Shown: positions 29,023 through 51,039 of the stretch, one piece after another
Layout of the letters: every line of letters begins with the position of its first letter
Position numbering within the stretch: the first letter of the stretch is position 1
Source of the DNA: Candidatus Taylorbacteria bacterium RIFCSPLOWO2_12_FULL_43_20
GTDB lineage: Bacteria; Patescibacteriota; Minisyncoccia; Phycocordibacterales; HO2-43-120
Direction: 5' to 3'
Assembly (NCBI GenBank): GCA_001821295.1
Contig: MHSK01000024.1
Location: forward strand, 1-51,877
DNA length: 51,877 nucleotides
The notes under the pieces: model-generated
What the model was told of the DNA's origin: nothing
Database searches by the model: none
Seen by the model: only the letters and a program-made list of their open reading frames with translations
Position numbers and translations under genes: made by a program

Positions 29023-30498
29023 ATGCTTTTCAACTCTTTCCATTTTCTTATCTTTTTCCCAACGGTAGTCGCTTTATACTTTTTATTTCCCGCAAAATGG
29101 AGGAATGCGCTTCTTCTGGCGGCCAGCGCTTATTTCTACATGGCGCTTATTCCGAAATACATTTTGGTTCTTGTTTATCTGGTTATTATTGATTATATTG
29201 CGGGAATACTTCTTGAACGGTCGTCTGGCCGAAGAAAAAAAGTTTTTTTATACGCGAGTATTGTCTCCAACATCGGAGTTTTGTTCATTTTCAAATATTT
29301 TAATTTTTTTATTGATAATATCGCGACCGTCGCCGATATGCTTAATTTAAATTACAGCGCTCCGGTTCTTTATTTTATTTTACCGGTAGGTCTTTCTTTC
29401 CATACTTTTCAAAGTTTGAGTTATGTCATAGAGGTATATCGCGGCAACCAGAGGGCCGAGAGGAACTTTATCACCTATGCCGTATATGTAATGTTTTTTC
29501 CTCAACTTGTAGCCGGTCCGATAGAGCGCCCGGGACATCTTCTTCCCCAGTTCAAAGTATTTCATCGGTTTGATTGGGAACGGATTAAAAGCGGTTTGAG
29601 TCTCATGCTCTGGGGTTTTTTCAAAAAAATGGTCATAGCCGATAACGCGGCGCGCGTGGTCAACACCGTTTACGCCGATCCTCACTCATTTGGCGGTGCG
29701 CATTTTATCATAGCGACCGTGCTGTTTTCATTCCAGATATATTGTGATTTTTCCGGTTATTCCGACATAGCCATCGGAGGCGCCAGAGTTATAGGTTTTG
29801 ATCTGACAACGAATTTCAACAGACCTTACTTGTCAAGATCAATATCGGAATTTTGGCGCAGGTGGCACATGACTTTAATGTCATGGTTCAGAGATTACGT
29901 CTATATCCCGCTCGGAGGAAGTCGCGTGGGGTCTGCGCGGGCTCTATTCAACATATTAATTGTTTTTTTAATCAGCGGGCTTTGGCACGGAGCGGCTTGG
30001 ACGTTTGTCGTCTGGGGACTATTGAACGCCGCCTATGTAATTTTGGGGAAATTTACGCTGAACATTCGCCGGAGAGCGATGGCTCTTTCCGGTTTGGCCC
30101 GCGGATCAAAGACAAGCGATTTTTTAAGCATCTTCGCAACCTTTTCGCTCGTCACATTCTCTTGGATTTTTTTCAGGGCGGAAAGTATTGACGACGCTCT
30201 TTACATGGTTTCAAATCTTCTAAGCGGGATGGGAGAATTTCTCTCGGGCGTCTTTGCGGTTGAAACATTACGGCGGACCGCGAGCCCTCTCGGGGTCAGC
30301 GCGCCGTTCGTGGTTATGCTGACTTTATCTATCTGCGCCTTGATTTATGCTGAATATAAGTCTGGTTCCTCTGGCGTCTCGGAAATGATTGACGCCAAAA
30401 GCCGAAAAATCAGATATTCATTATATTACGCCTTAATACTCGCCTTAATGTTTTTCGCTTTTCAGGGAGATAGTCCGTTTATATATTTTCAATTTTGA
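29023..30498 (+). CDS. MBOAT O-acyltransferase (AlgI/PatA/DltB-like)
   Basis: LPVGLSFHTFQSLSY, FFPQLVAGPIER, DFSGYSDIAIG, FWRRWH, GLWHGA, terminal FIYFQF. Confidence 0.95.
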   Translation: MLFNSFHFLIFFPTVVALYFLFPAKWRNALLLAASAYFYMALIPKYILVLVYLVIIDYIAGILLERSSGRRKKVFLYASIVSNIGVLFIFKYFNFFIDNIATVADMLNLNYSAPVLYFILPVGLSFHTFQSLSYVIEVYRGNQRAERNFITYAVYVMFFPQLVAGPIERPGHLLPQFKVFHRFDWERIKSGLSLMLWGFFKKMVIADNAARVVNTVYADPHSFGGAHFIIATVLFSFQIYCDFSGYSDIAIGGARVIGFDLTTNFNRPYLSRSISEFWRRWHMTLMSWFRDYVYIPLGGSRVGSARALFNILIVFLISGLWHGAAWTFVVWGLLNAAYVILGKFTLNIRRRAMALSGLARGSKTSDFLSIFATFSLVTFSWIFFRAESIDDALYMVSNLLSGMGEFLSGVFAVETLRRTASPLGVSAPFVVMLTLSICALIYAEYKSGSSGVSEMIDAKSRKIRYSLYYALILALMFFAFQGDSPFIYFQF

Positions 30499-30500
30499 AC

Positions 30501-31637
30501 ATGAAAACCGCGACTAAAGAAATCTTTTTGTTTACTCTTCCGATTGCCATAGTTGTCTTGTTTCCTTTAATGGTTTTTTTTATATCAGGCGAGTTTTATT
30601 CATTGGAGAAAATTCAAAGCAGGATGCTTGAAGGAGAGCCGATTTTATATGGCAAAGCGTATATGGTAGATTCCGATCGTGATTTCAAGATACCTATGAT
30701 GCAGAGAATTACACCCGACATTATGACCCTGGGCAATTCACGGGTGCTGACATTCAGGCGGGAGTTTTTTGAAGAGGGAACGCGATTTTTTAATGGCGGC
30801 AGTCTTGTCGGCAATTTTAGTGATTTAGAGAAGGTTATAAATTTAGTGCCGAAAGATAGCCGGCCTAAAGTGGTTATTATAGGTCTTGATCTGCATTTAT
30901 TTCATCCGATCAATGACGACCTGTATAAAGGCGACGTAAAAATGGCAAATATTAATACAAAGCGGTCACTTCTAATAAGCGGACTTAGAAACAGCTATAG
31001 AGATTTGCTTTTGGGAAAATACAGTGTTTTTAAGATACTGAACGCCGGAGGGGATGGCGCTGTATCACCGGTCGGTTTGAAAGCCGTAATAAACAATGAC
31101 GGGTTTAGAAGTGACGGCAGTTATTATTACGGATATATCATGTCGGATCCCCAAAATCCCGAAAATGAGGATCATGAATTTAAAGACACATTTGCCAGGA
31201 TGAAAAAAGGGGATCAGCTTTTTTATCAAGGAAAAGAGATTTCCGAGCTTACGATTTCGGCGCTTGTTGATTTTCTTGATTTCGCGATGGAAAACAAGAT
31301 TCACGTTATTGGTTTTCATCCACCTTACGCGCCGACCATATACGACGCGCTCGCGGCTCGGAAAAATGATTTTGAGTACATGTTTAGAGTAAATGAAATT
31401 CTGGCACCGATTTTCCAGGGGTATGGTTTCTCTCTTTTTGATTACTCGGATATTCGATTTCTTGGCTCGTCTGACGAAGAGTTCGTAGACGGGTTCCATG
31501 GAGGAGAGAAAGCGTATGCACGAATTATCATGGATATGGCTGAAAAAGACAACTTGCTCAACCAGTACGTTGACATTGATGCTTTACGAAAAAAATTGGA
31601 CGTTTCAAAGACCGCATTAGAAATTTTTCCAAACTGA
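30501..31637 (+). CDS. membrane-anchored SGNH-like partner of the MBOAT (AlgJ/DltD-like)
   Basis: N-terminal TM, LGNSR (Ser block), DGFH (DxxH); 2 nt downstream of the MBOAT gene. Confidence 0.65.
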   Translation: MKTATKEIFLFTLPIAIVVLFPLMVFFISGEFYSLEKIQSRMLEGEPILYGKAYMVDSDRDFKIPMMQRITPDIMTLGNSRVLTFRREFFEEGTRFFNGGSLVGNFSDLEKVINLVPKDSRPKVVIIGLDLHLFHPINDDLYKGDVKMANINTKRSLLISGLRNSYRDLLLGKYSVFKILNAGGDGAVSPVGLKAVINNDGFRSDGSYYYGYIMSDPQNPENEDHEFKDTFARMKKGDQLFYQGKEISELTISALVDFLDFAMENKIHVIGFHPPYAPTIYDALAARKNDFEYMFRVNEILAPIFQGYGFSLFDYSDIRFLGSSDEEFVDGFHGGEKAYARIIMDMAEKDNLLNQYVDIDALRKKLDVSKTALEIFPN

Positions 31638-31663
31638 TCCAAAGGAAGATTCGGATCGCAAAT

Positions 31664-31691
31664 TTGACGGCTTCTATAATGTAATTATACT
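31664..31691 (+). promoter_or_regulatory. candidate sigma70 promoter for the kinase/cyclase module
   Basis: TTGACG (31664-31669)-N16-TATACT (31686-31691) in a 115-nt gap. Confidence 0.5.
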
Positions 31692-31752
31692 TTTTATTTC
31701 ATGATTTGTCAATATGCTTAAAAGGTCATGAGAGGGTATATTTAAACCTATT

Positions 31753-32742
31753 ATGGCTAATGAGAAGATTGCAGAATTTCTAAACAAATTGGGAATTCAA
31801 AAAATAAAGCAAATCAAGGCCTTCCCCAAAGGGAATATCAATGAATCTTATTTTGTGGATTCCGAACTTGGATCTTATGTTTTTCGAATTTATTTTCACA
31901 AGCAAAAAAAAGAGATTGAAGACGACCTTAAACTCTTACGCCGCTTGAAAGGAATACCTGTCCCTCGCCCCGAGGTTTTTAAAGGCGGAGAAATACATAA
32001 ATTAGGAGACAAGTGGGTTGTGCTGTTCAGTTTTTTACCCGGCGCGCATGCTAAAGATTTTGACATTAACTTGCTAAGCGAAGTCGGTAAATTTTTAGGA
32101 GTTTTTCATAAATTATCTAAGAAATCAAAATGGAGAGGCCCTAAAACAAAATTTTATGGCTTGACGAGATCCAAAATACATGAGATTAAACTGGTAATTG
32201 AAAAAACCGACATTCCTCATAAAAAATTTTTTCCAGAGATACTGGGAGAGCTTGAGATGAATTTGATAAGAAGGCGTCTGCCCGAGGGGCCCATACATAC
32301 AGATGTTAAACCCGAAAATGTTCTCTTTAAAGACGGTAAGTTATCCGGCGTTTTGGATTTTGACAACGCCTATGTCGGTCCGCTCATTTTAGATGTCTCC
32401 AAGTCAATGGCTTGGTTCGGATCTAAAAATAGAATGTTTGATATGAATAAGGCAATCCACATATATCACGGCTATCAGCATACTCGGCGCTTAACAGCGA
32501 TTGAAAAAGAGGAATTTTACAAAATGCTCCGTTTCGCATTTGTAAGCCATGTCTTTATGGATTATTATATGTATGCCACGGGTAAAATCTCCAGAAAATA
32601 TTTTGATTTTATAGTTAAAAATTTCTACGCGAGCTATAAACATTTCAAACAAACGCCTAAGGAGAGTTTTATGAAATTGCTGACCAGTATTTTACCGCCC
32701 ACTACCCACCGGGTTCCATTGAAACGGCGGAAAGGAAACTAG
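31753..32742 (+). CDS. APH/homoserine-kinase-type-II family phosphotransferase
   Basis: GNINESY, YVFRIY, IHTDVKPENVLF (HxDxxxxN), LDFD. Confidence 0.85.
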   Translation: MANEKIAEFLNKLGIQKIKQIKAFPKGNINESYFVDSELGSYVFRIYFHKQKKEIEDDLKLLRRLKGIPVPRPEVFKGGEIHKLGDKWVVLFSFLPGAHAKDFDINLLSEVGKFLGVFHKLSKKSKWRGPKTKFYGLTRSKIHEIKLVIEKTDIPHKKFFPEILGELEMNLIRRRLPEGPIHTDVKPENVLFKDGKLSGVLDFDNAYVGPLILDVSKSMAWFGSKNRMFDMNKAIHIYHGYQHTRRLTAIEKEEFYKMLRFAFVSHVFMDYYMYATGKISRKYFDFIVKNFYASYKHFKQTPKESFMKLLTSILPPTTHRVPLKRRKGN

Positions 32743-32779: not shown

Positions 32780-33511
32780 ATGGTTTCTCTATCAATAAAA
32801 GAACTTCGTCATAAATTGCAAAGAACGGCTCCCGAAGGCGCGTCAGAAACCTATGTGGGAAAGAGCGTGCGTTTTTTTTCCATATATCTTACGAAGGCGG
32901 TTTCCGCCACACGCGCAACTCCCAATCAGATCACCTTTTTGGGCGTGCTCATATTTCTTTCGGGTGTATCGGTCTTTTTATTCCGATCCTACGCATTAAA
33001 TTTTCTTGGGGTTGCCCTGATTTACGTTTCTATTATTTTTGATGCCGCAGACGGAGAGGTTGCCCGTCTAAAAGGCAATCAAAGCGGCATAGGCGGCAGT
33101 TATGTTGAACCGCTGAGTCATGACTTCCAGTACGCGCTCATGTTTATTCCGCTCACTTTGTCAGTTTATATTTCCACGAGCGAGGTCGTGATTGTTTATG
33201 TCGGTTTCGCGGCAACCGTCTTCAAGCTATTGCATAGATTTCTGACTATAAGATTTGAGCACGTATTTATGATGAAAAACGGCACAAGCAGGGATGCAAT
33301 TGGCAGCGATGAAAAATATATTTCACTGCCGCACAAAATTTATAAATTTTTTAACAGAAATATATTCAGCTCCGTAGGGCTTCCCATACCGCTTCTGGTT
33401 TTTGTCATACTAGACAGGGTTGATTTGTTCATATGGTTTTTCGCTATTGGTTTTTTTGTCATATTCGCCGCTAATTTTGCTTATCAAATGAAATATATTA
33501 TTAAGCATTAG
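32780..33511 (+). CDS. CDP-alcohol phosphotransferase family membrane protein
   Basis: TPNQIT, DAADGEVAR..G...EPLSHD (variant of DxxDGxxAR..GxxxDxxxD); multiple TMs. Confidence 0.88.
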   Translation: MVSLSIKELRHKLQRTAPEGASETYVGKSVRFFSIYLTKAVSATRATPNQITFLGVLIFLSGVSVFLFRSYALNFLGVALIYVSIIFDAADGEVARLKGNQSGIGGSYVEPLSHDFQYALMFIPLTLSVYISTSEVVIVYVGFAATVFKLLHRFLTIRFEHVFMMKNGTSRDAIGSDEKYISLPHKIYKFFNRNIFSSVGLPIPLLVFVILDRVDLFIWFFAIGFFVIFAANFAYQMKYIIKH

Positions 33512-33550
33512 AAAGAGAATGTGCATATTTTAAATGGATAACTTAAATTG

Positions 33551-35395
33551 ATGAAAAAAGGAATTATCGTCATAGAACCAAAAACTCCGCGTCTCAATTA
33601 TTTAAGGACAGAACTGCCTTTCATATTGATCTATGGGAAGCCGCTAATCCATCATCACATAGAGAATCTTATTGACGCCGAGGTGTTTGACATTGTAATT
33701 GTAATTCCCAATACGCTGGAAAAAGATCTGCGCGGCCAACTCGGTGAATTTTTTCAGGAAAGAGCCAAAATAAAAGTAAGCATCTACTTGGGCGAGAATT
33801 ATTTTCTGGCTTTAAAAAATATTCTAGCGAACACGGAAGCCGATGATCACCATATTATTTTTACGGGGCTTATATCGGAAAAAAACCCGCACAAGTTTTT
33901 TCTGAAGAAAAAAAAGCTGGAATTACTTATTGACAAAAATTTATTGCATAACAAATTTTCAGGAGCGCGAAACAAAGTCAAGACCGGCCTATTCGGCATA
34001 AAAGAAATAGGACCCGACATCACCGGTTATAACGCTGAATTGCAAAGGGCGTATTACATGAACAAAGAAGGCGCTCAAGAAATAGCGCGGATAATGGATG
34101 GGAATCCCGATTCAACGCTTGAGAAAGCCATAATGGAATGGGGTTTGTCCAATAAGATTGGTATTTTGAATCACGGCAAGTATTTGTGGTATGAAATCAA
34201 CTCCCCGGAAACAGCTATCCGAGCCGAAATGCTTTTCAGGCGCAAGAAAGAAAACGCGCGCCCGACCGAAGTCAAAACAGACAGATTTATTTACCCAGAC
34301 ACTTCGCTTCATTTCAGGTATGAAAAATCCAGAGAGACACCCGTAATTATTGAACAAGGTATTCTTGACAGAATTGACACACTACGTCTTATGGACCGGG
34401 ATAGGACAGCATCTCACCACATTATGATCACGGATACGGTTGTGGACAGACTTGTGGGGAAAAAAGTGGAAGAAAAGTTAACAAAAGCAGGGTATTCCCT
34501 TACGAAAATCATAGCTCCGTCTGGTGAAGCCGCGAAAACAATGAATGTCTATCATGAGTTGTCAGAAAAAATCACCAGTATCGGAATAGACGAGCAGTCC
34601 GTCATATTTTCTTTGGGTGGAGGAGCTATAGCTAACCTTGCCGGTTTTCTCGCCGCCACTCTGTACAGGGGAATAGGGCTTATTCATATTCCCACATCAC
34701 TGATGTGCATGAATGATGTGGCCATAAGCTTAAAGCAAGGCATAAACAATCAAAAAGGCAAAAATCTGGTAGGCAGCTACTATCAGCCGTTGCTTGTTGT
34801 AATAGATCCTTCCGTTCCCATGAATGAAACCATCATCAGGCACGGAATGTCAGAGACGATAAAGCATGCTTTAGCAGAGGATGTCGCCTTTTTTGATTAT
34901 TTGCTATCATACAACGGTGATTTGAAGGATGTAAATTTTCTTGAAAAAATCATAAGGCACACGATTGAACTCAAAATAGGGCTTATGAATGACGATATGT
35001 TTGAAAACGCGAGGGCTATCATACTTCAATACGGGCATGAGGTGGGGCACGCTATAGAATATCTTTCACATTTTGGCTTGACTCACGGAGAAGCAATTTC
35101 AATCGGAATGAGAGTGTCGGCGGAAATTTCGCATCTTATGGGTGTCACTTCCGAGGATACTGTTTACGCACATAAAAAAATATTGGAACATTACAAACTG
35201 CCTTATATTATTCCTCAAACCATTGAAAAAAGAGCGATATTGGACGCTTTGCGATTCAATAAAAAAACAAGAGGTAATGACATTCGTTTTGCTTTACTGG
35301 AACATGTGGGTAAGATATGGAAGATAAAAGGTGAATACGGCATTCCTTGCCCCGTTGAAATTATAGAAGAGGCGATCAGAAGAAGTTATGAATAA
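33551..35395 (+). CDS. fusion: degenerate nucleotidyltransferase-like domain + sugar-phosphate cyclase (2-deoxy-scyllo-inosose synthase-like; DHQS superfamily)
   Basis: N-terminal GKPLIHHHIENL..DIVIVI and WYEINSPE; C-terminal SGEAAK, LGGGAIANLAG, RGIGLIHIPT, DVAISLKQGIN..GKNLVGSYYQP, ETIK, QYGHEVGHAIE, THGEA. Confidence 0.8.
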   Translation: MKKGIIVIEPKTPRLNYLRTELPFILIYGKPLIHHHIENLIDAEVFDIVIVIPNTLEKDLRGQLGEFFQERAKIKVSIYLGENYFLALKNILANTEADDHHIIFTGLISEKNPHKFFLKKKKLELLIDKNLLHNKFSGARNKVKTGLFGIKEIGPDITGYNAELQRAYYMNKEGAQEIARIMDGNPDSTLEKAIMEWGLSNKIGILNHGKYLWYEINSPETAIRAEMLFRRKKENARPTEVKTDRFIYPDTSLHFRYEKSRETPVIIEQGILDRIDTLRLMDRDRTASHHIMITDTVVDRLVGKKVEEKLTKAGYSLTKIIAPSGEAAKTMNVYHELSEKITSIGIDEQSVIFSLGGGAIANLAGFLAATLYRGIGLIHIPTSLMCMNDVAISLKQGINNQKGKNLVGSYYQPLLVVIDPSVPMNETIIRHGMSETIKHALAEDVAFFDYLLSYNGDLKDVNFLEKIIRHTIELKIGLMNDDMFENARAIILQYGHEVGHAIEYLSHFGLTHGEAISIGMRVSAEISHLMGVTSEDTVYAHKKILEHYKLPYIIPQTIEKRAILDALRFNKKTRGNDIRFALLEHVGKIWKIKGEYGIPCPVEIIEEAIRRSYE

Positions 35396-36143
35396 ATTTA
35401 CGGCGGTAATTTTAGCGGCGGGGATGGGGTCTCGGTTAAAACATCTCACAAAAGACCTGCCTAAGCCCCTTGTTGAAGTAGGAGGAAAATCTTTGATCTG
35501 GTACGCCATAAGTTGGGCTAAATCCTTAGGTGTGTCAAAAATCGTGGTGGTGGGAGGGTATAAATTTGAGCTTCTAAAAGAGGCGGTAAATTTAATTGAT
35601 TCATCCGTAGTGATGGTTGAAAATGAAGAATACGCTACGACGCAGAGAATGGTCAGTCTTCTTAAGGCCAGAGGAGAAGTTGAGGGCGGACTATATGTGC
35701 GCGACGCCGATTATATTTTTGACACCTCTCTTGCGAATAAATTCAAAAAATATTTTGATGGTACGGTTATTTTCGGCACGGGAAAGGACTCGGTTGGTGT
35801 CGGGCTGGACATGAAAGTCAAATTGGATGACGACGGGAACCTCCTGGACATGTCAAAAGAGCTCACGGATTATGATTATTTTTTCTGCACGCAAGTTTTT
35901 TCAGAAGAAAAAAAAGTTTCTATCCTGCTTCAAGCCGGAGAAGATCTCATAAAGGAAAAAGGGGACGGCATGGTGCATGTTGAGGACGCTCTTCTTAAAA
36001 TGGTAAAGGACGGCGAAACGGTGAGATTTATTGACGTGGGAGCTCCTAAGTGGGTTGAAATTGATACTATAGAGGAATATGAGCGAGCAAACGAGCTGGT
36101 AAGCAACAAAGGAGAAAATGTGGCTGTGGAACTATTGCAGTAA
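35388..36143 (+). CDS. phosphocholine/inositol-phosphate cytidylyltransferase-like NTP transferase (LicC/IPCT type)
   Basis: AVILAAGMGSRL..LTKDLPKPL, DADYIF, MKV, WVEIDT.EEY; overlaps the upstream gene. Confidence 0.85.
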   Translation: MNKFTAVILAAGMGSRLKHLTKDLPKPLVEVGGKSLIWYAISWAKSLGVSKIVVVGGYKFELLKEAVNLIDSSVVMVENEEYATTQRMVSLLKARGEVEGGLYVRDADYIFDTSLANKFKKYFDGTVIFGTGKDSVGVGLDMKVKLDDDGNLLDMSKELTDYDYFFCTQVFSEEKKVSILLQAGEDLIKEKGDGMVHVEDALLKMVKDGETVRFIDVGAPKWVEIDTIEEYERANELVSNKGENVAVELLQ

Positions 36144-36215: not shown

Positions 36216-39200
36216 ATGAATAGATTAATAAACCACAAGATTGGTCAAATTTTTCGCAGTTTAAAAGATGGCAGACCGGCATGGCTATGGATTATAGGCA
36301 TATTTGCCGCCATTAACTTTTTCCTGACTATTTTTCTTGGTTATCTATTCTTAAATAATTATAATATCTGGTGGGTTATCAGCGCGGTTCCTCAAGCTCC
36401 GCGGCGGACGGTGCAGGCTGTAATTGATTGGGTTAAAGAAATACCCTACATTCCGTATCAGTTCATAGATGACGGTCTTCCTCGCTACGACATTGTGCTG
36501 ACAAAAGCTGATTATGAAGAGCTTTTGGAGAATCTGCCGCGCGACATCAGTCAGTTTTTGACTGATGAAAATAAAATAAAGAAAAGAGCTGTTTTTAGAC
36601 ATGGTAAAAAAGTCTACGAAGCGAAGGTGGGTTTCCGCGGCGATGGCTCTGGACACTGGTTTTGGCCGAAAAAATCTTGGAAGGTTAAGTTGGCTGACGG
36701 GAATTACATTGACGATATGAGGGAAATTAATTTTATTTTACCCGATGAGCGTCAGTATATTGTTGAGGCTTTTAATAATTATCGCACGCGTAAATTAGGA
36801 TTACCGTATCTCAAAGACGGATGGGGTGTGCTTTATGTAAATGGTGTCAAGCAAGGGGTATATTATATCTCTGAATCATGGGGAAGCGAATTTCTAGCCA
36901 GAAACTCTCTTAATGACAACGGAACTTTGTATGGAGACAAGTATCCGCCATCGCCCAAAGATCATTATTCCATTTATGGAAAGTTTGATGATATAGCTGA
37001 TTTTTGGAAAACATACACATCACAGCCAAAAGAACGTGAGGTTGGCGACGATGAGAATTTATCAGTTTCATCAAGCAATATACCTGACGTCAGCATAACT
37101 GCGTTATCTCAATTTTTTAAAGTCGTCAACTCTGAAGACGAGTATTTCAAAAAAAATATTTGGAATGTTGTAGACAAAGAAGATTTCTATAATTGGTATA
37201 TGCAATCTAAATTGTCCGGCAGTTATCATCAATACTGGATGAACAACGCTCGTATGTATTTTGATCCGGAGATTGGGAAAATGCGCGTCATTCCCGTGGA
37301 TGTGGGTATTTACACTGATGCTATTCCTTATTTTTTTCTTGGCACAAACTCGCTTGTTGACCGGTTGATTAAAAATCCGGATTTTATTACAGAAGTTGAG
37401 AGGCGGCTTTATAAATATGTCAGTGATGAGAAAAATCTTGAAGAAGATCTTGCTTATTATGATTCCTTGTACAAAAAAGTGAGAATTGCATTTTATCAGG
37501 ATCATTTGGATGAGAACACCGGCAAATCATTTGATAAGACGGTGGCGAGCGGCAGGGACGCAATTATTGCCAATTTTCACGCAATTTCAAAACATATAGA
37601 AAGTGCGGAAGTAGAAAACATCGTGACGCTGAATGCAGGGACGAATGGCAATTTATTTGAGGGCAAGAGAATCTTGGCTGAATTGCATGTTAAGGAAAAA
37701 AGCGCGGCGCCTATTGTCTTGCGTTCTTTATCTGTTCCGGCATTTTCTTCCGAGAACTCCCCGGAGCTTTATGAAGATGTTAATCTTAATGGATTTCTTG
37801 ACTCCACAGACCGAAAAGTGGGAGTTTTCTCGTTTTCAGCCGAAAAAAAAGAATGGGTTATTGGCAGTCTTAAAGAAGTTTTTAACCCATCTTTATCTTT
37901 GTTGAATAGCGATGAAATTAATAATATCGGCAATCTAGAATTCGCCAAAAAAGTTTACGAAATATCCGCAACTGAAAAAAAATATTTTATTGCCGCTGAA
38001 AATATTGCCGGCGAGCGATTCAAAATAAAGACATTTTTTGAAAACCTTATATCAAGTAAAGAAATTCAACCATTACGCGAAGTGTACGTGGATCAGTCTA
38101 TATTCGCGGATTTTGACGCGGTTTCGTATTCGCAGGACGAGTTTTTGGCGATGAACCCCATATTTTATAAGATAGATGACAATACTCTGGGCGTTGGTCC
38201 GGGAGTTTTTGATCTCGCTAATACGGTCGTAATTCCAAAGGGCCAGATCTTATCTGTCAGTTCGGGCACTACGTTGCGCTTTTCTCCAGGCGTGTCCTTT
38301 TTCTCTTATGGAAAAATCCTGGCGCGATCGTCATCAGGTAATTCAATACGATTTGTAAAATCCGGTAAAGACCCGTGGGGAGTTTTCGCTCTTATTGAGG
38401 CGCCTGGCACGAGCGTTTTTGACGGTGTTGTGTTTGAAGATGGGGGAACCGGGCTCATAAACGGCGCATATTTTTCTGGAATGCTAGCCGCTCACCACTC
38501 GGATATAATAGTGCGAAATTCCTTTTTTAAGGGGGCGACCGGTGATGATGCGCTTAACGTCAAGCACGCGAGTTCTTCCATTGTTTCCAATCAATTCACG
38601 GCCAATCAATTTGACGCTATAGATCTGGATTGGGGTAATTTTTCGTTTGTCAAAGACAACGTGTTTGAGCAAAATGGTGATGACGCGATTGATCTCGGAG
38701 GAGCGCAAGGTGTCGTCATAATGGATAATTTTATAAAAAAATCAGGTGATAAATGCATTAGTATTGGTGAAAAATCAGTCAGACCGTTGATTATTAATAA
38801 TATTCTATCGGGCTGTAAGATCGGAGTACAGGTTAAGGACGGGTCCGATCCGATTATAGCCAACAACATAATATATGGAAATGATATTGGCATAGATGCT
38901 TATGAAAAAAAGGGTATTTATGGAGGGGGTTATGCCGAGGTTTATAATTCTATTATTTGGGGAAATAAAGTATCGTTGTCAATGGATGAGTTTTCCACTA
39001 TTAAAGTCGTATCCAGTAATGTTGAGGGGGGGTGGCGGGGCGACGGTAATATCGCGGTTCCCCCTTCTTTTAAGGATGCTGACGGCGGTAACTTTACTAT
39101 AGGAAAAGGAAGTGATAGTATCTTATTGTTATTTCAAGAGGGAGGAGAGAGGTCTGTTTTGACAGACTATTTTGGATTAAATCTTGAAAAGATTCCTATA

Positions 39201-39218
39201 GGCCTTTTGAACCAATGA
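36216..39218 (+). CDS. membrane-anchored CotH-kinase-like domain + right-handed parallel beta-helix protein
   Basis: N-terminal TM; FRGD..HW..KKSWKVKL, LYVNG..GVYYISE, NARMYFDP..IPVD (CotH); C-terminal repeats DDALN, DAIDLD, GDDAIDLG, GDKCISIGE, GVQVKDGS. Confidence 0.8.
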   Translation: MNRLINHKIGQIFRSLKDGRPAWLWIIGIFAAINFFLTIFLGYLFLNNYNIWWVISAVPQAPRRTVQAVIDWVKEIPYIPYQFIDDGLPRYDIVLTKADYEELLENLPRDISQFLTDENKIKKRAVFRHGKKVYEAKVGFRGDGSGHWFWPKKSWKVKLADGNYIDDMREINFILPDERQYIVEAFNNYRTRKLGLPYLKDGWGVLYVNGVKQGVYYISESWGSEFLARNSLNDNGTLYGDKYPPSPKDHYSIYGKFDDIADFWKTYTSQPKEREVGDDENLSVSSSNIPDVSITALSQFFKVVNSEDEYFKKNIWNVVDKEDFYNWYMQSKLSGSYHQYWMNNARMYFDPEIGKMRVIPVDVGIYTDAIPYFFLGTNSLVDRLIKNPDFITEVERRLYKYVSDEKNLEEDLAYYDSLYKKVRIAFYQDHLDENTGKSFDKTVASGRDAIIANFHAISKHIESAEVENIVTLNAGTNGNLFEGKRILAELHVKEKSAAPIVLRSLSVPAFSSENSPELYEDVNLNGFLDSTDRKVGVFSFSAEKKEWVIGSLKEVFNPSLSLLNSDEINNIGNLEFAKKVYEISATEKKYFIAAENIAGERFKIKTFFENLISSKEIQPLREVYVDQSIFADFDAVSYSQDEFLAMNPIFYKIDDNTLGVGPGVFDLANTVVIPKGQILSVSSGTTLRFSPGVSFFSYGKILARSSSGNSIRFVKSGKDPWGVFALIEAPGTSVFDGVVFEDGGTGLINGAYFSGMLAAHHSDIIVRNSFFKGATGDDALNVKHASSSIVSNQFTANQFDAIDLDWGNFSFVKDNVFEQNGDDAIDLGGAQGVVIMDNFIKKSGDKCISIGEKSVRPLIINNILSGCKIGVQVKDGSDPIIANNIIYGNDIGIDAYEKKGIYGGGYAEVYNSIIWGNKVSLSMDEFSTIKVVSSNVEGGWRGDGNIAVPPSFKDADGGNFTIGKGSDSILLLFQEGGERSVLTDYFGLNLEKIPIGLLNQ

Positions 39219-39997
39219 ATTTACAACCAGAATTTCACTTCAGGCGTTTTGAGATCAAGTATTTAACGGATGAAGATACGGCTGAAAACATAAAAAAAGA
39301 TTTAATGCCCTATCTGAAACACGATCCTTTTGCAGATCAGGAAGCAAAAGAGTATGAAGTAAGGAGTGTTTATTATGACAGCCCGGGATATTTTTACTAT
39401 CAAGAAACTCTTGATGGCTATAATTCAAGGAAAAAAATCAGAGTAAGATGCTATCGGACTGGCGGCCAGATTAAAGACAATGCTTTTCTTGAGATCAAAC
39501 GTAAAGAAGGAGTAATTGTTGTAAAAGACCGCATACGGCTTAATCTGGAAGAATTGCGTCAATTTCAAAAAACGGATACGTTACTGGATAGCGGACGGTC
39601 TTTTTCTTCCAAAGAAGAAAATTTCATAAAAGAATATGAGTTTGAAAGGGTTATCAGGGCGCTTTCTCCTAAAATTTTGGTAACTTACACGAGGGAGCCA
39701 TACGCGGGAGTGTATGACGAAGGCCTCCGAGTGACTTTTGACAGAAATATTAAAGCGGCTCAGAATGACAATCTTTTCTATGATGGAGGCGACATGGAAA
39801 GAATTCATCCGGGTGAGGTTGTGGTGGAGATCAAGTTCAGAAGGGGCCTTCCTGTATACATGGGGGAAACTATAAAAAAATTCAGCATGATAAGAGTTCC
39901 TTTTTCCAAATATCGGAAGGGGGTGGAAGAAACACGCGCCATACCCGGGAGTTTTCCAGGCATCACGCGGGGTTTTGAAACAGTTTCGTATATTTAA
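39215..39997 (+). CDS. VTC-domain (polyphosphate polymerase, CYTH superfamily) protein
   Basis: RFEIKY, RSVYYDS, RKKIRVRCY, FLEIKRK, YTREPY, RVTFDRNI, VVEIKF, FSKY. Confidence 0.92.
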   Translation: MNLQPEFHFRRFEIKYLTDEDTAENIKKDLMPYLKHDPFADQEAKEYEVRSVYYDSPGYFYYQETLDGYNSRKKIRVRCYRTGGQIKDNAFLEIKRKEGVIVVKDRIRLNLEELRQFQKTDTLLDSGRSFSSKEENFIKEYEFERVIRALSPKILVTYTREPYAGVYDEGLRVTFDRNIKAAQNDNLFYDGGDMERIHPGEVVVEIKFRRGLPVYMGETIKKFSMIRVPFSKYRKGVEETRAIPGSFPGITRGFETVSYI

Positions 39998-40018
39998 TTA
40001 TAATTAGAGATAATCACC

Positions 40019-40711
40019 ATGAATGATTCCATGAATGAATTGTTAAATCTGGGTACGAGCCAACTGCAAAACCCGACGCTTATTATAACCGGCATACTGA
40101 CCTCTTTTGTTATCGCGCTCATTATCGTATATATTTATCGCAAGACGCACAGAGGGCTTTCTTATTCTCAGTCATTTGTCGTAACTCTTATTTTTGTCAC
40201 TATGGTGGCGGCCGTTGCGATGATGGTCATAGGTAATAATGTAGCAAGAGCCTTCGGTCTCTTGGGAGCTTTTTCTATCATTCGCTTCAGAACTGTTGTG
40301 AAAGAACCCAAGGACATAAGTTATATATTTTTTGCTCTTATAGAGGGAATGGCTGTTGGAACCGGTAGTTATTTGATTGCGATCATTTCAACCATACTTT
40401 TTTCAATAATTTTAATTACACTGCATAGGTTTAATTTCGGATCTTATCAACCGAAGAGATACCTGCTCTCTTTTCTAGTGGGTTCGGAAGTCAGACATGA
40501 GGAAAATATTTCTGCGATATTCAACAAATATTTAAAAAACAGTTTATTGCTAAACGTAAATTCTAAAGATGACGGAAAAATGAGAGAAATGATTTACGAT
40601 ATTGATTTTTTTGAAAAAGGCAAAAGCGGTCCGTTTGTTTCTGAGCTGGCTTCAGTCCAAGGGGTTGAAAAGGCCCGCATAATCACATCCACAACGGACA
40701 TTGAGTATTAG
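40019..40711 (+). CDS. DUF4956 family membrane protein
   Basis: YSQSFVVTL, IGNNVARAFGLLGAFSIIRFRT..K.PKDI.YIF, GMAVG; C-terminal soluble ACT-like part. Confidence 0.9.
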   Translation: MNDSMNELLNLGTSQLQNPTLIITGILTSFVIALIIVYIYRKTHRGLSYSQSFVVTLIFVTMVAAVAMMVIGNNVARAFGLLGAFSIIRFRTVVKEPKDISYIFFALIEGMAVGTGSYLIAIISTILFSIILITLHRFNFGSYQPKRYLLSFLVGSEVRHEENISAIFNKYLKNSLLLNVNSKDDGKMREMIYDIDFFEKGKSGPFVSELASVQGVEKARIITSTTDIEY

Positions 40712-40752
40712 ACTGAAAAAATGCGTCAGCATATAGCTTTTTGACTAAACGA

Positions 40753-42141
40753 ATGAGAAAAATATTGCTAACAATTTCTCGCGGCTGGATTGCGCGTAAT
40801 CTATTGCATAATGAATTTTACAAAATCTTAAGAGAAAATTGCGAGCTTATCATCATAACGACGGCGGCCGACAGCGATCGTTTTATAGGTGAATTTTCTC
40901 ATCCGAACGTCAGATTTATCGCGATGGATGAGAAGGGCCACAATTCTCTAGATGCCCTGATCTTTTTTTTTCACAAAAATCTTATATATAACTCCACGGT
41001 TGATCAAAAGAATCGATGGGGAATCATAGGCGATCCTAAAAGTAGAAAGCCCATCTTTTTTTTCTATCTTATAAAAAAAATAATTTTTATCCCTCTAAGT
41101 AAAATGAAATTTTTGCGCGAGCTATTTCGTCTCGTGGATTACTTTTTTTTACAAAAAAATGAAGTGAACAAATATTTGAAAGTTTTGGATAGGGAAAAAC
41201 CTGATTTGGTTCTGTCAACAAACGTTTACAGTGACAGCGAAGCCGCGCTTATAAAGGCGGCTAGAAAAAGAAAAATATTTACGCTCGGAATTCCAAAAAG
41301 CTGGGATAATTCCAATAAAAACGGACTACGGGCCAAAACTGACGTAATGTTCGTGTGGAGCGAGTTTATGGCGGATGAAGTCATAAAATACCAGAATTAT
41401 AAGGATAAAAAAGTAAAAATTTTGGGAATTCCGCAGTTTGATGATTACACAGATAAGAATTTGATAATGAATAGAAAGGAATTTTGCGAAATATACGAAC
41501 TTGATCCCGGCAGGCGGATTATTTTTTTTGGATCGGAGGGAAAACTGCTGCCAACTGACGCGGAAATTGCCGATATTATTTATGAAGATATTTTGACGAA
41601 CAAGTTTAATGAACCGTCGCAACTATTGGTACGCCCCCACTTTGGCTATAAAGATGACGATCTTAAATTTAAGAGTCTCTTCGGCAGGGATCGTGTCGTG
41701 GTTGACCGCTTGAACAACCCCTCAGATTGTTTTCGCGACTCATGGGATTATTCTTCAGAGTTTACCAAGCGTTTTGTAAATTGCCTTTATCACAGTGATG
41801 TCATAGTCAGCACTTATTCCACGCTCACGCTTGACGGAGCCGCTTTTGACAAACCGCTTATTAACATAGCTTTTGATGGAAGGAAATTCGTGCCGTATGA
41901 TCGATCTGTCGCCAGGTGGGAAATGGCAACTTATTTTAAAAAAGTGTTGAATACCGGCGCGGTGTGGAATGTAAATAATGTTTCCGAACTTAGGAACGCA
42001 ATCAATTCGTATTTTGACAACCCTTCAAAATTATCAAAAGAAAGAGAATTGCTAAGGGCAAGGTTTTGTTTTAAGATTGATGGACAAAGCGGAAAACGCT
42101 TCGCTAATGAGGTTCTGAATTTGCTTAGAGCCAGTTCATAA
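40753..42141 (+). CDS. GT-B protein, CDP-glycerol glycerophosphotransferase (TagF)-like / candidate nonulosonate transferase
   Basis: RN motif near the N-terminus, PKSWDN, GIPQFD, VRPHF, STLTLD..FDKPLIN, DGQSGKR. Confidence 0.6.
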   Translation: MRKILLTISRGWIARNLLHNEFYKILRENCELIIITTAADSDRFIGEFSHPNVRFIAMDEKGHNSLDALIFFFHKNLIYNSTVDQKNRWGIIGDPKSRKPIFFFYLIKKIIFIPLSKMKFLRELFRLVDYFFLQKNEVNKYLKVLDREKPDLVLSTNVYSDSEAALIKAARKRKIFTLGIPKSWDNSNKNGLRAKTDVMFVWSEFMADEVIKYQNYKDKKVKILGIPQFDDYTDKNLIMNRKEFCEIYELDPGRRIIFFGSEGKLLPTDAEIADIIYEDILTNKFNEPSQLLVRPHFGYKDDDLKFKSLFGRDRVVVDRLNNPSDCFRDSWDYSSEFTKRFVNCLYHSDVIVSTYSTLTLDGAAFDKPLINIAFDGRKFVPYDRSVARWEMATYFKKVLNTGAVWNVNNVSELRNAINSYFDNPSKLSKERELLRARFCFKIDGQSGKRFANEVLNLLRASS

Positions 42142-43185: not shown

Positions 43186-43869
43186 ATGAAAAATTTTCCT
43201 TCACAAGAAGCGATTGACATATATAACTATTTTAAAACGTTGCCTGGTTCGGAACATATCGGCAAGCCTGTAAGCATAGATGCTCTGATTCAAATATGCG
43301 GCGAAATTAAACCACAAAGAGTTTTGGAAATGGGGGGAGGAATAGGGGCGTTAAGTTATACCCTTCTAAAATATTCAAACGCGTTTCTTGATATTTATGA
43401 GGATAATGAATTTTGTATAGGTGAGTTGCGAAAAAATCTCGCAGAATATAAAGAAAGATTTCAAATAATATCCGCCTACAATGTTCTTCCTCCTTCAAAA
43501 AATTACGACTTGGTTGTTATTGACGGGGGAACCGGAACTGAAGGCGACGGCGGCTATTCCTTAGCAGCCCGGCTTTTTCTCTTATACATTGATTCAGTAA
43601 AAGTGGTATATCTGGAAGGGTACAGAGGCATGCAGAGAAGGTTGGCAAGATTAGCTCTGCGAGAGAAGTATGTCTGCCGTTACACGCCTTACAAGGAGAT
43701 CTATGTGGAAGGAAAAAAATGGCATGGCGGACTGAAGATTGTTTGCCGCTTGGTCAGATCAGGTTTTGTAAGGTGGACAGACTTTTGTTTTTGGGAACTA
43801 TCGTCTGAACTCAGGAGATGGTATTTCAGAATTAAGAATATAGGCAAATCCGCCAAGTCAAAAAAATGA
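43186..43869 (+). CDS. putative SAM-dependent methyltransferase-fold protein
   Basis: RVLEMGGGIGALS, YED, YDLVVIDG. Confidence 0.65.
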   Translation: MKNFPSQEAIDIYNYFKTLPGSEHIGKPVSIDALIQICGEIKPQRVLEMGGGIGALSYTLLKYSNAFLDIYEDNEFCIGELRKNLAEYKERFQIISAYNVLPPSKNYDLVVIDGGTGTEGDGGYSLAARLFLLYIDSVKVVYLEGYRGMQRRLARLALREKYVCRYTPYKEIYVEGKKWHGGLKIVCRLVRSGFVRWTDFCFWELSSELRRWYFRIKNIGKSAKSKK

Positions 43870-44633
43870 TTGTGCCAAAAAAAATAAGAGTTATACCCCG
43901 TTTGGACATAAAGGGCGCGAATGTTATTAAAGGGGTTCATCTGGAATGCTTGCATATTGTCGGAAACCCAGAAGAAATGGCGACTCGCTATTATAGCCAG
44001 GGAGCCGATGAGCTTATATACATGGATGTTGTGGCAAGTCTCTACGGACGAAATAATCTGTTGGATATTGTGGAAAAAACCGCCAAGAATGTTTTTATTC
44101 CCCTCACTGTTGGCGGAGGCATAAGATCCATTGATGATATAAAAAGCGTATTGAGGGCCGGAGCTGATAAAGTGGCCATCAATACTCATGCGACGCTAAA
44201 TCCCCAGTTTATTACGGCGGCGGCGAGGACTTTCGGCTCACAGTGCATTGTTGGATCCATCGAGGCAAAAAAAATCAATGAAGACAGGTGGGAGGTTTTC
44301 ACGGACAACGGCCGGGTTGAAACCGGTTTAGACGCCGTGAATTGGGCGATAAATCTTGAACAACTTGGAGCGGGCGAGCTTCTTATTACTTCCATAGATC
44401 AGGAAGGAACGGCAAAAGGGTATGATACCGAACTTATCAAGAAAATAGCTCCCAATATATCAATACCCGTGATTGCCTGCGGCGGAGCCGGAAAGCCAGA
44501 GGATATGGTCCTTGCGGTAAAAGAAGGGTTCGCGGATGCTGTAGCTGCGGGAAACATATTCCACTATAATAAATATTCCATCGCGGAGGTAAAAAAATTT
44601 CTCAGAGAAAGAGGTATTGATACAAGGAGTTAA
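43866..44633 (+). CDS. hisF: HisF-like cyclase subunit, glycan-associated (WbuZ-like)
   Basis: VIPRLDIKG, GADEL, VGGGIRS, GADKVAINT, GAGELLITSIDQEGT..GYD, CGGAG. Confidence 0.85.
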   Translation: MIVPKKIRVIPRLDIKGANVIKGVHLECLHIVGNPEEMATRYYSQGADELIYMDVVASLYGRNNLLDIVEKTAKNVFIPLTVGGGIRSIDDIKSVLRAGADKVAINTHATLNPQFITAAARTFGSQCIVGSIEAKKINEDRWEVFTDNGRVETGLDAVNWAINLEQLGAGELLITSIDQEGTAKGYDTELIKKIAPNISIPVIACGGAGKPEDMVLAVKEGFADAVAAGNIFHYNKYSIAEVKKFLRERGIDTRS

Positions 44634-44637
44634 GATT

Positions 44638-45270
44638 ATGCGCAAGACAATAGTCATAGATTATGGATTTGGCAATTTGTTCAGCTTGACGAAAGCGTTG
44701 GCATTTTTAGGCGCGAATTACTCTGTCTCAGATAATCCTGAGGAGGTAGAAAAGGCCGAGGCCATAATATTACCCGGTGTTGGAGCGTTTGGTGATGGGA
44801 TCGCAGAACTCAATAAAAGAGGCCTGAACGAAGCGGTAATTGAGGGAGCGAAGAGGGGGATACCACTACTTGGAATTTGCCTAGGGATGCAATTTCTTTT
44901 TGAAAAAAGTCATGAGTTTGGCGAACATAAAGGATTGGGTTTAATCAAGGGGGAAGTTAAAAGAATTACGCTTACAGAAAAGCCATTTTTCAAAATTCCT
45001 CATACGGGATGGAGTCCTTTGTTGCCTCCGGATGGAACAGAGGGATTTAACAATCCTCTTTTTTCAGGAATTAAGCCCGGGTCAGAGGCGTATTTTGTGC
45101 ATTCTTATGCCGGAAAAAGTCAAACAGATGATATAATAGCAAATACGATTTATTGTGAGACGAAAATTCTTGCCGCGGTTGGCAAAGGCAACGTGTTTGG
45201 AACTCAATTTCATCCGGAAAAAAGCGGAGAAATCGGAATTCAAATTCTTAACAATTTTCTTTCCTTGTAG
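44638..45270 (+). CDS. hisH: HisH-like class I glutamine amidotransferase (WbuY-like)
   Basis: IDYGFGNL, LPGVGAF, GICLGMQ, PHTGW, YFVHSY, QFHPEKS. Confidence 0.9.
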   Translation: MRKTIVIDYGFGNLFSLTKALAFLGANYSVSDNPEEVEKAEAIILPGVGAFGDGIAELNKRGLNEAVIEGAKRGIPLLGICLGMQFLFEKSHEFGEHKGLGLIKGEVKRITLTEKPFFKIPHTGWSPLLPPDGTEGFNNPLFSGIKPGSEAYFVHSYAGKSQTDDIIANTIYCETKILAAVGKGNVFGTQFHPEKSGEIGIQILNNFLSL

Positions 45271-48680: not shown

Positions 48681-48712
48681 ACTTCAGCCGTTTTATGGCA
48701 TTATATGTCAAC

Positions 48713-49825: not shown

Positions 49826-49826
49826 C

Positions 49827-50993: not shown

Positions 50994-51039
50994 ATAATAA
51001 CCCCGTCTTTTTAGTGTTTTCAATATAATGTATTTTGAT

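Follow-up and report, generated by a model that had tools for sequence, protein, structure and literature searches.

A Q-type sugar phosphate cyclase fused to a nucleotidyltransferase-like domain and its proposed cyclitol-phosphate cassette in a Taylorbacteria genome

Introduction

The 51,877-nt stretch of Candidatus Taylorbacteria bacterium RIFCSPLOWO2_12_FULL_43_20 analysed here (the window; GTDB phylum Patescibacteriota, assembly GCA_001821295.1, contig MHSK01000024.1, positions 1 to 51,877 of the forward strand) carries a gene for a two-domain protein, in which a nucleotidyltransferase (NT)-like domain precedes a domain from the superfamily of sugar phosphate cyclases. [quoted passage not shown] By residue states and phylogeny, the domain belongs to neither type but to a third lineage of sugar phosphate cyclases, which we call Q-type and which is linked in its relatives to a cassette of genes for a putative activated cyclitol.

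Few activities of the superfamily have been characterised, and every addition to them has given access to a pathway. The accessible text of PMC12904256 names DHQS, DOIS, EEVS, EVS, DDGS and, as the latest, EboD/DEIS; that of PMC4426668 adds aminoDHQS.

Results

Gene and domain organisation

The features of the locus are collected in Table 1. The reading frame of the two-domain protein opens with TTG 33548, directly followed by ATG 33551, and the ESM Atlas entry of the protein begins at residue 2, read as M; the true start is therefore probably ATG 33551. One public gene call (P0001) starts at the internal Met228 and comprises 388 aa, by which the N-terminal domain is hidden. Full-length homologues of 609–646 aa align with the 615-aa protein end to end.

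The C-terminal part has the marks of the superfamily of sugar phosphate cyclases, namely both Pfam domains, the DHQS fold and the core catalytic and metal residues. DHQ_synthase (PF01761) covers residues 321–423 and DHQS_C (PF24621) residues 433–573, at 101.4 and 102.3 bits and above the gathering score, and the TIGR01357 alignment spans residues 265–592, which puts the cyclase domain at about 260–615. The segment that the first-pass annotation had assigned to the cyclase (34300–35395) coincides with these extents. The AlphaFold model of the protein has a mean pLDDT of 88.5 and is confident except for residues 11–20 (pLDDT 62); Foldseek aligns it to BtrC and AroB structures at TM scores by target of 0.87–0.92 (BtrC 0.89–0.90).

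Within the ESM Atlas, 61 proteins form a cluster with NT and DHQS domains, Myxococcota being the commonest source. Neighbouring clusters of 51 and 478 proteins, mostly from Bacillota, fuse NTP_transf_3 not to DHQS but to an iron-type alcohol dehydrogenase, an arrangement in parallel by which another CDP-polyol might be made. In a plasmid collection 118 records matched, all at <60% identity and the listed ones at 27–35%, and no close relative was found there. Promoter and terminator scans did no better than shuffled sequence (40 vs 37.7 ± 6.6 and 18 vs 13.2 ± 3.8).

Table 1 Features of the locus in the window
Feature	Coordinates	Strand	Basis
Two-domain protein gene (nucleotidyltransferase-like + sugar phosphate cyclase)	33548..35395	+	615-aa open reading frame (ORF)
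N-terminal LicC/IPCT-like nucleotidyltransferase domain, degenerate motif	33548..34250	+	Homology to L127 N-domain
Q-type sugar phosphate cyclase domain, DHQS fold	34301..35392	+	Pfam, NCBIfam and PDB matches
NT2, separate intact nucleotidyltransferase, proposed CTP:cyclitol-phosphate cytidylyltransferase	35388..36143	+	Pfam NTP_transferase, NTP_transf_3
APH-family small-molecule kinase, proposed cyclitol kinase	31753..32742	+	Pfam APH, 92.1 bits
Integral-membrane CDP-alcohol transferase, divergent subfamily	32780..33511	+	Pfam CDP-OH_P_transf, 31.9 bits
TagF-like CDP-polyol phosphotransferase, candidate transferase of cyclitol phosphate to glycan	40741..42141	+	Pfam Glyphos_transf
MBOAT acyltransferase	29023–30498	+	Pfam MBOAT; syntenic neighbour
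380-aa partner of MBOAT (orf380)	30495–31637	+	No Pfam family; syntenic neighbour

Signature residues separate three classes of cyclase

In HMMER alignments to solved structures, BtrC (2d2x) reads GGGLTGNVAG, DSVLSIKQAVN, IFEYGHTIGHAIE and THGEA, and three AroBs (3qbd, 3zok, 5eks) read GGGxxxDxAG, DxxVGGKTGIN and LN[YL]GHT[LF]GHAIE, which upholds the AroB and BtrC motifs that the first-pass annotation had given for comparison. The motifs that it had quoted from the window, GGGAIANLAG, DVAISLKQGIN, DMFENARAIILQYGHEVGHAIE and THGEA, are all present in the translation of 33548..35395. The substitutions it had described are likewise seen in the alignment: Asn for Asp (N363), the S-x-K-Q segment (S394-L-K396-Q397) and Gln for Glu (Q494). 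In place of the Arg that AroBs carry six residues ahead of the G in the GH motif, the window has Ala and BtrC has Gly. Asn363, the S-x-K-Q segment and the lack of this Arg are common to the window and the BtrC-type enzymes, and at these sites the domain is indeed DOIS-like.

We aligned 312 distinct cyclase-domain sequences, drawn from AroB-dominated loci, from 117 homologues found by protein search, from loci found with the DNA patterns QYGHExGH and EYGHxxGHA, and from E. coli K-12 (AroB); 198 of 237 domain-matching ORFs of the loci were retained for coverage. The motif-specific DNA patterns replaced a family-alignment locus search, which had returned mostly AroB genes among the matches listed. 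Residues at the Asp/Asn, S-x-K-Q, Arg and 494 sites define three classes: (i) AroB-type (D, GGK[TV], R, N; 93 sequences), (ii) BtrC-type (N, S-x-KQ, no R, E; 80 sequences) and (iii) Q-type, which includes the window (N, S-x-KQ, no R, Q or M/L/I/N; 139 sequences). Because these classes rest on residues, and the motif itself had served to pick two of the source sets, independent checks were needed. The states are fixed for D, G394 and N494 in AroB-type sequences (each 1.00, n = 93) and for N and S in BtrC-type sequences (each 1.00, n = 80), and among 103 unselected loci the AroB Arg is present in 92 of 92 AroB-type sequences. As judged from this clean separation across the 312 aligned sequences, the match in signature states is far beyond chance.

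Further positions distinguish the classes (Table 2). By its residues the Q clade is a mosaic: DOIS-like at the sites that we take to bind the carboxylate end of the substrate in AroB, it resembles AroB at K572 and T371 and has H440 and W591 to itself; the roles of these fingerprint residues are those we assume from work on A. nidulans DHQS and on BtrC. The window carries the full set of Q-clade states (N363, KQ, no Arg, Q494, H440, K572 and the W591 insertion), retains 29 of 29 residues conserved across the AroB-, BtrC- and Q-type classes, and departs only once, at E444, from the positions conserved to at least 90% in the Q clade.

Table 2 Residues that distinguish the three classes (window numbering)
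Position	AroB-type	BtrC-type	Q-type
363	D	N	N
371	T	L	T
394	G	S	S
440	Y	N	H
494	N	E	Q
572	K	N	K
591			Trp-containing insertion (W591), Q-type only

Position 494 corresponds to what we take to be the catalytic Glu243 of BtrC. In the 117 homologues that were not selected by motif it is Q in 104, M in 6, L in 3, N in 2, I in 2 and E in none. Gln is thus the norm of the clade, and the individual loss of a catalytic Glu that the first-pass annotation had read from the window is not borne out. A shifted base, which it had offered as an explanation, is not indicated either: Met, Leu and Ile are tolerated in 11 of the 117, and for this reason position 494 probably has no acid/base role in the Q clade. 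As in DHQS, the departing phosphate could act as its own base. The Glu that the annotation had noted in place of Thr after the GH motif is present (E498) at a site that is variable in the same 117 homologues (E 49, T 28, N 17 and others 23, these being S 8, A 7 and other residues 8).

The window domain falls in a separate, strongly supported clade

Phylogenies with AroB- and BtrC-type sequences, a check that the first-pass annotation had proposed, place the window outside the AroB group; a place inside it would have counted against the reading of that annotation. FastTree, run on all 312 rows, assigns the window to a clade of 139 rows (support 100) and unites the 80 BtrC-type rows in a single split (support 99). 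In an IQ-TREE phylogeny of 62 representatives under LG+C20, AroB-, BtrC- and Q-type sequences each form one split (support 99, 99 and 100), and the AroB-type split, which holds E. coli AroB (b3389), leaves the window out. Constraining the window into the AroB group costs 64.8 lnL units (approximately unbiased (AU) test, p-AU 0.013). These trees, which cover AroB-, BtrC- and Q-type sequences, are unrooted, and a sister pair among the three groups is not assignable.

Pairwise scores against the PDB agree that the domain is not simply a BtrC-like DOIS. Against 2d2x the BtrC-type anchors reach 355.8 (L166) and 261.4 bits (L161), and against any AroB at most 133; the window domain is about equidistant, with 150 bits to BtrC and 166.8 to M. 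tuberculosis AroB. Given these scores and the clade support of 100, the view that the domain is a DOI synthase like BtrC whose catalytic segment has been altered individually is not supported.

The nearest relatives of the gene come from metagenome-assembled genomes (MAGs) titled Saccharibacteria, Falkowbacteria and Patescibacteria. Among 401 sampled genomes of the phylum, including the window genome (G000), 34 match at E ≤ 1e-20; a match over the N-terminal domain was found in none of the others, the best being an unfused gene in G140. Publicly, Q-type members are named 3-dehydroquinate synthase, iron-containing alcohol dehydrogenase or hypothetical protein.

The BtrC-type (EYGH) group itself (loci including L010/L147, L135, L139, L145, L179, L184, L193 and L209) splits in two, a BtrC-like half with the anchors (Paenibacillus, Streptomyces) and a second half from Clostridia, Lachnospiraceae, Calothrix, Acidobacteria and others. 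DOIS-like enzymes may extend well beyond aminoglycoside clusters.

AroB criteria and shikimate genes

The domain scores 263.4 bits with TIGR01357 (265.1 in the genome search), below the cut-off of 305 for the AroB equivalog, and at the AroB signature it has N363, SLKQ, Ala and Q494 in place of D, GGK[T/V], R and N. The gene is the sole aroB-like gene of the window genome, which comprises 1.0 Mb on 38 contigs at completeness 100 (the 400 sampled genomes of the phylum span 0.5–2.1 Mb). Profile searches of this genome gave no match for aroC, aroK, aroE, aroQ or aroD, with controls positive in 7–14 of 14 genomes, and for aroA only 72.7 bits against a cut-off of 287; none of 5 other cassette-bearing genomes yielded aroC.

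One ORF of the window genome resembles an AroG-type (class I alpha-like) DAHP synthase (contig C8, 6791–8194; L003 1024..2430; PF00793, 274 bits). Its frame comprises 468 aa, with the start probably about 117 codons in, and it stands as an orphan, no shikimate gene downstream of dehydroquinate having been found in the genome. We rejected it as a linked substrate supplier of the cyclase, the family being found in 0 of 5 other cassette-bearing genomes.

The N-terminal nucleotidyltransferase domain is degenerate and conserved

Within residues 1–235 no Pfam NT domain matches, and weak NCBIfam nucleotidyltransferase matches are confined to residues 22–76. Homology is nevertheless recognisable to the intact N-domain of the relative L127 (31.8% identity, 93.6 bits), whose best PDB match is LicC (1jyk). 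The LicC/IPCT-like motif (G-x-G-x-R loop, Lys of PKPL, Asp of DLxFE) is missing from the window, with fold and homology kept: only 1 of 5 near-invariant residues is retained (P11, T13, R15, L23, G107, that is, G11P, G13T, K23L and D107G), while 92 of 102 fused proteins retain at least 4 of 5. Two or fewer, counting real residues only, are found in the window, P0002, P0004 and P0007, which form the window's own subclade.

The domain is predicted to be catalytically inactive and yet conserved. Between the window and P0002 the identities of N-domain and cyclase are 0.47 and 0.73, a ratio of 0.65, and intact pairs at similar divergence give 0.58–0.64. As conserved relative to its cyclase as intact N-domains are, the degenerate domain seems to be retained for a non-catalytic role rather than to be decaying.

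Linked genes form a cassette in relatives of the window

We examined 52 loci (20 and 26 from the pattern searches and 6 others), 47 of which hold the cyclase and represent 39 distinct loci, many of them truncated. Across these 39 a reductase occurs in 29, either a zinc-dependent alcohol dehydrogenase (Zn-ADH, 14) or an SDR (15) and never both; an APH kinase in 21 and a GHMP kinase in 1 more. Of the other partners, a separate NT accompanies the cyclase in 22, CDP-alcohol transferases occur in 16, TagF-like genes in 8 and methyltransferases in 14. For the 14 distinct loci that are flanked on each side by 3 kb or more, the reductase is present in all 14 (8 Zn-ADH, 6 SDR, never both), kinase, CDP-alcohol transferase and separate NT in 11 each, and a TagF-like gene in 5. 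Of 17 further, independently found loci that are related to P0116, an unfused R. palustris member, 16 hold an SDR homologue. The cyclase gene of the window does lie within a glycan locus, as the first-pass annotation had stated; this setting, which it had thought unexpected, is typical of the Q-type clade in the loci of relatives.

Fusions join the same functions. Among the 120 listed homologues 101 comprise 560–950 aa, most with NTP_transferase/NTP_transf_3 and the two DHQS domains; the Patescibacteria proteins P0037 and P0042 are NT-cyclase-SDR fusions, and a gammaproteobacterial MAG encodes a 928-aa NT-cyclase-APH kinase fusion (L126:2466-5249, minus strand). Unfused Rhodoplanes members sit among glycosyltransferases and a CapD-like dehydratase. 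Bradyrhizose and caryose are carbocyclic sugars in O-antigens; we followed them as a lead and dropped it, having found no paper that links them to DHQS-like genes and no Bradyrhizobium among 19 P0116-related loci.

The gene order in L273 is MBOAT-orf380-ADH-kinase-transferase-NT-cyclase-NT2, and in L127 the ADH has this position too. Where L273 and L127 carry the Zn-ADH, no more than 115 bp (31638–31752) separate orf380 from the kinase in the window, and the gene appears from this synteny to have been deleted in the window lineage.

Neighbouring genes in the window

The best PDB match of the kinase is the type II homoserine kinase 2ppq (56.5 bits). Among NCBIfam models the CDP-alcohol transferase comes nearest to those of archaetidylinositol-phosphate, PIP and DIPP synthases, staying under cut-off with each, and the block DxxDGExAR...G..EPxSHDxQY is conserved in 7 of 7 aligned cassette homologues. 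NT2 matches best the IPCT/DIPPS bifunctional model in NCBIfam (62.1 bits), with HddC and AglF models also matched, and in the PDB LicC 1jyk (56.9 bits), followed by the nucleotidyltransferase/aminotransferase fusion 6pd1 and IPCT (2xme, 4mnd). The TagF-like protein shares 42.7%, 58.7% and 55% identity with cassette-adjacent TagF-like genes of L126, L256 and L291, and has a paralogue (34% identity) at 47307–48680. The window genome contains one PGM/PMM-family gene.

The gene orf380 is coupled in translation to the MBOAT gene, which it overlaps by 4 bp, and adjoins MBOAT in L273 and partly in L127; its product may be the extracytoplasmic partner of the O-acyltransferase. Three genes come right after the cassette (36216–40711), one for a 1000-aa CotH kinase-like protein that has a right-handed beta-helix region, one for a VTC-domain protein and one for a DUF4956 protein, and a CotH homologue follows the cassette in L277 too. 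In regions 43866–45270 and 48677–51777, genes for HisF-like and glutamine amidotransferase proteins are followed by those for NeuB, a member of the UDP-GlcNAc 2-epimerase family and a CMP-sugar cytidylyltransferase; the set resembles a pathway to nonulosonic acids within this island, and a NeuB gene follows the cassette in L119 too. At 20566–22083 a 505-aa ORF combines a GNAT-type acetyltransferase (residues 64–153) with a short central piece of a DegT-type aminotransferase (268–342), either an odd fusion or a remnant.

Discussion

Proposed pathway

We consider it probable that the Q-type domain is an active NAD+- and metal-dependent cyclase and that its cassette makes, activates and attaches a cyclitol phosphate. 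The conservation of all 29 universal residues and the confident model argue for a functional enzyme. The cyclase would convert a non-carboxylated hexose 6-phosphate, for which glucose-6-phosphate is the default guess, into a deoxy-inosose carbocycle with loss of phosphate; such a substrate is plausible because the Asn, the S-x-K-Q segment, THGEA and the loss of the Arg are common to BtrC. As in DHQS and DOIS, oxidation, phosphate elimination, re-reduction, ring opening and aldol closure would follow one another, the elimination proceeding without a Glu base at 494. In relatives, the reductase (Zn-ADH or SDR) would then turn the ketone into a cyclitol, the APH-type kinase would phosphorylate it, the LicC/IPCT-like nucleotidyltransferase would form the CDP-cyclitol, and the CDP-alcohol transferase and/or the TagF-like enzyme would pass the cyclitol phosphate to a membrane lipid or glycan acceptor. 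This chemistry and the order of the steps are modelled on LicA/LicC, IPCT/DIPPS and pneumococcal gtp1-3/wchX. For the window genome itself, we suggest that the separate NT2 does the activation, the fused NT domain being a degenerate remnant, and that the reductase gene of the cassette has been lost; either the inosose is used here without reduction, or the step falls to a different reductase, or erosion of the pathway is under way.

Several points weigh against this proposal. Clade membership, residue states, gene linkage and fusions, and the absence of the shikimate genes searched for are observed; substrate and product are proposed by analogy, and step order and acceptor are inferred. PDB sequence scores slightly favour AroB for the window domain, K572 and T371 make the clade AroB-like so that its pocket is not simply that of a DOIS, and Foldseek does not discriminate, the top four rows being BtrC chains (3.8e-30) with AroBs next (1.9e-29). 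The loci of the cassette counts were found by the QYGHExGH pattern and sample only part of the clade; 3 of the 14 well-flanked ones (Myxococcales and a proteobacterial MAG) hold only NT-cyclase and SDR; and intact cassettes hold two nucleotidyltransferases, a doubling left without explanation. The cassette of the window is short of the reductase that 14 of 14 well-flanked relatives have; its genome yielded no Zn-ADH homologue, and SDR homologues occur on contigs C9 and C3 only; PGI was not found in this genome, which puts the source of glucose-6-phosphate in doubt; the orphan DAHP synthase-like ORF is present; and the degenerate fused NT domain means that the pathway may be altered or decaying.

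Alternative explanations

The pathway may differ from our proposal in its use of the product, the cyclase feeding an NDP-carbasugar that serves as pseudo-glycosyl donor, or in its substrate, which could be mannose-6-phosphate or a heptose phosphate. The DHQS-like EboD uses mannose-6-phosphate, according to the accessible text of PMC12904256; PGI was not found in the window genome, while a GDP-mannose 4,6-dehydratase gene lies in the window; GT1 glycosyltransferases adjoin several loci; the unfused gene of L085/L296 is accompanied by a GHMP kinase, an SDR and a NUDIX gene instead of an APH kinase, a CDP-alcohol transferase and an NT; and NT2 also matches the sugar-1-phosphate nucleotidyltransferase models HddC and AglF. 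We nevertheless think such a variant unlikely: NT2 and the intact N-domain are closest to alcohol-phosphate cytidylyltransferases (LicC, and for NT2 also IPCT) rather than to sugar-1-phosphate enzymes, and the CDP-alcohol transferase (11 of 14 well-flanked loci) and TagF-like (5 of 14) families both transfer alcohol phosphates from CDP-alcohols. Distinctly less probable is a decaying remnant that no longer makes any product. The missing Zn-ADH, with 115 bp in its place relative to the syntenic L273 and L127 and no homologue found elsewhere in the genome, and the N-domain with 1 of 5 motif residues would fit decay; all cassette genes, however, are intact ORFs, the cyclase keeps 29 of 29 universal residues with a single departure from the clade's conserved positions, and the degenerate N-domain is common to a whole subclade and no less conserved relative to its cyclase than intact N-domains are.

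Very improbable, in our judgement, is a canonical DOIS that feeds an aminocyclitol (2-deoxystreptamine-like) pathway, even with N363, S-x-K-Q, THGEA and the missing Arg as in BtrC, with BtrC chains leading the Foldseek table, with the unfused clade members P0116 and P0117 named '2-deoxy-scyllo-inosose synthase' in the database, and with a DegT-family aminotransferase gene 10 kb upstream (22928–24043). The clade stands apart from the BtrC-type group, whose members score 261–356 bits to BtrC and about 130 to AroB, against 150 to BtrC for the window domain; Q494 replaces the BtrC Glu, and N440 and N572 are H and K; and no aminotransferase was seen in the well-flanked cassettes, which were scanned with the window neighbours and cassette proteins rather than by a dedicated aminotransferase search. 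As to a true 3-dehydroquinate synthase, we reject it as hardly credible. The subthreshold TIGR01357 score, four differing signature residues, the rejection of a grouping with AroB (AU p 0.013), the failure to find any of five downstream shikimate genes searched for in the window genome, and the lack of DAHP synthase and aroC (each 0 of 5) in the other cassette-bearing genomes outweigh the facts that aroB is the best NCBIfam model, that M. tuberculosis AroB is the top PDB sequence match, that K572 and T371 are AroB-like and that an AroG-type ORF stands on contig C8.

Wider implications

We found no paper on the Q-type clade or its cassette in the literature searched, in which subscription papers were thinly covered, and the Q-type is most likely a previously undescribed lineage. 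The clade is large, and from its tight linkage and its fusions we predict an activated cyclitol and a surface modification that are both new. More tentatively, and with less confidence than we place in the cyclase and its cassette, we suggest that Patescibacteria together with scattered Myxococcota, Bradymonadales and some Proteobacteria may synthesise a carbocyclic polyol de novo by a new class of cyclase that does without the catalytic Glu of DOIS, activate it to a CDP-cyclitol along a Lic-like route and place cyclitol phosphate on surface glycopolymers or lipids. If true, this would be a teichoic-acid-like cyclitol-phosphate decoration without a described counterpart, in bearers that include ultrasmall, host-dependent bacteria with barely known envelopes. 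The analysis also corrects the 'AroB' annotation, which would falsely imply shikimate capacity in such genomes; EboD, in the accessible text of PMC12904256 and PMC5133447, is a precedent for mis-annotated 'AroBs' that can have new substrates.

Comparison with known systems

The likeness to BtrC-type DOIS (2d2x/2gru) comprises the fold, the Asn of GGGxxxN, S-x-K-Q, THGEA and the missing AroB Arg. BtrC-type enzymes differ by N440, N572, L371 and Glu where the window has H440, K572, T371, Q494 and the W591 insertion, and Q-type cyclases are usually fused to a nucleotidyltransferase and partnered by reductase, kinase, NT and CDP-alcohol transferase rather than by aminoglycoside enzymes. With AroB (TIGR01357; b3389; 3qbd, 1dqs) the domain has in common the fold, the 29 core residues including the metal ligands, Lys572 and an amide at 494 (Gln vs Asn); it differs in N363 instead of Asp, SLKQ instead of GGKT, the lack of the Arg and a score under the model cut-off.

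EboD is described in the accessible text of PMC12904256 and PMC5133447 as resembling DHQS, as having for long been wrongly annotated as AroB and as forming a C6 inosose in a setting other than the aminoglycoside pathways, and in that of PMC5133447 as grouping near sedoheptulose-7-phosphate cyclases. The window domain matches heptulose cyclases weakly (ValA 92.7 bits, DDGS 70.8), and EboD works with a UbiA prenyltransferase cluster rather than with a Q-type cassette.

For the later steps, the di-myo-inositol-phosphate pathway (IPCT/DIPPS) likewise pairs a cytidylyltransferase with a CDP-alcohol-family transferase acting on a cyclitol phosphate, and its models are the nearest named ones for NT2 and among the nearest for the transferase, all scores lying far under the cut-offs (580). 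[quoted passage not shown] LicA/LicC/LicD and Gtp1-3/WchX, the enzyme families of Gtp1-3 being those we presume, resemble the cassette in leading a small alcohol through an APH-type kinase and a LicC-type cytidylyltransferase to transfer onto a surface glycan. In pneumococcus, gtp1-3 is read as a CDP-2-glycerol pathway and wchX as a phosphotransferase in the accessible text of PMC1391919. Unlike in these systems, the alcohol here would be made de novo by the cyclase, and the transferases belong to the CDP-alcohol and TagF-like families, not to LicD or WchX.

Activation of the C7-cyclitol in validamycin and acarbose biosynthesis yields GDP-valienol, a pseudo-glycosyl donor for a glycosyltransferase. 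The combination of cyclase, kinase and nucleotidyltransferase in these pathways, as given in the accessible text of PMC9200736, is a precedent for an NDP-cyclitol. Those pathways differ in using EEVS-type sedoheptulose-7-phosphate cyclases and pseudoglycosyltransferases in secondary metabolism, whereas the Q-type cyclases lie in surface-glycan loci of small-genome bacteria.

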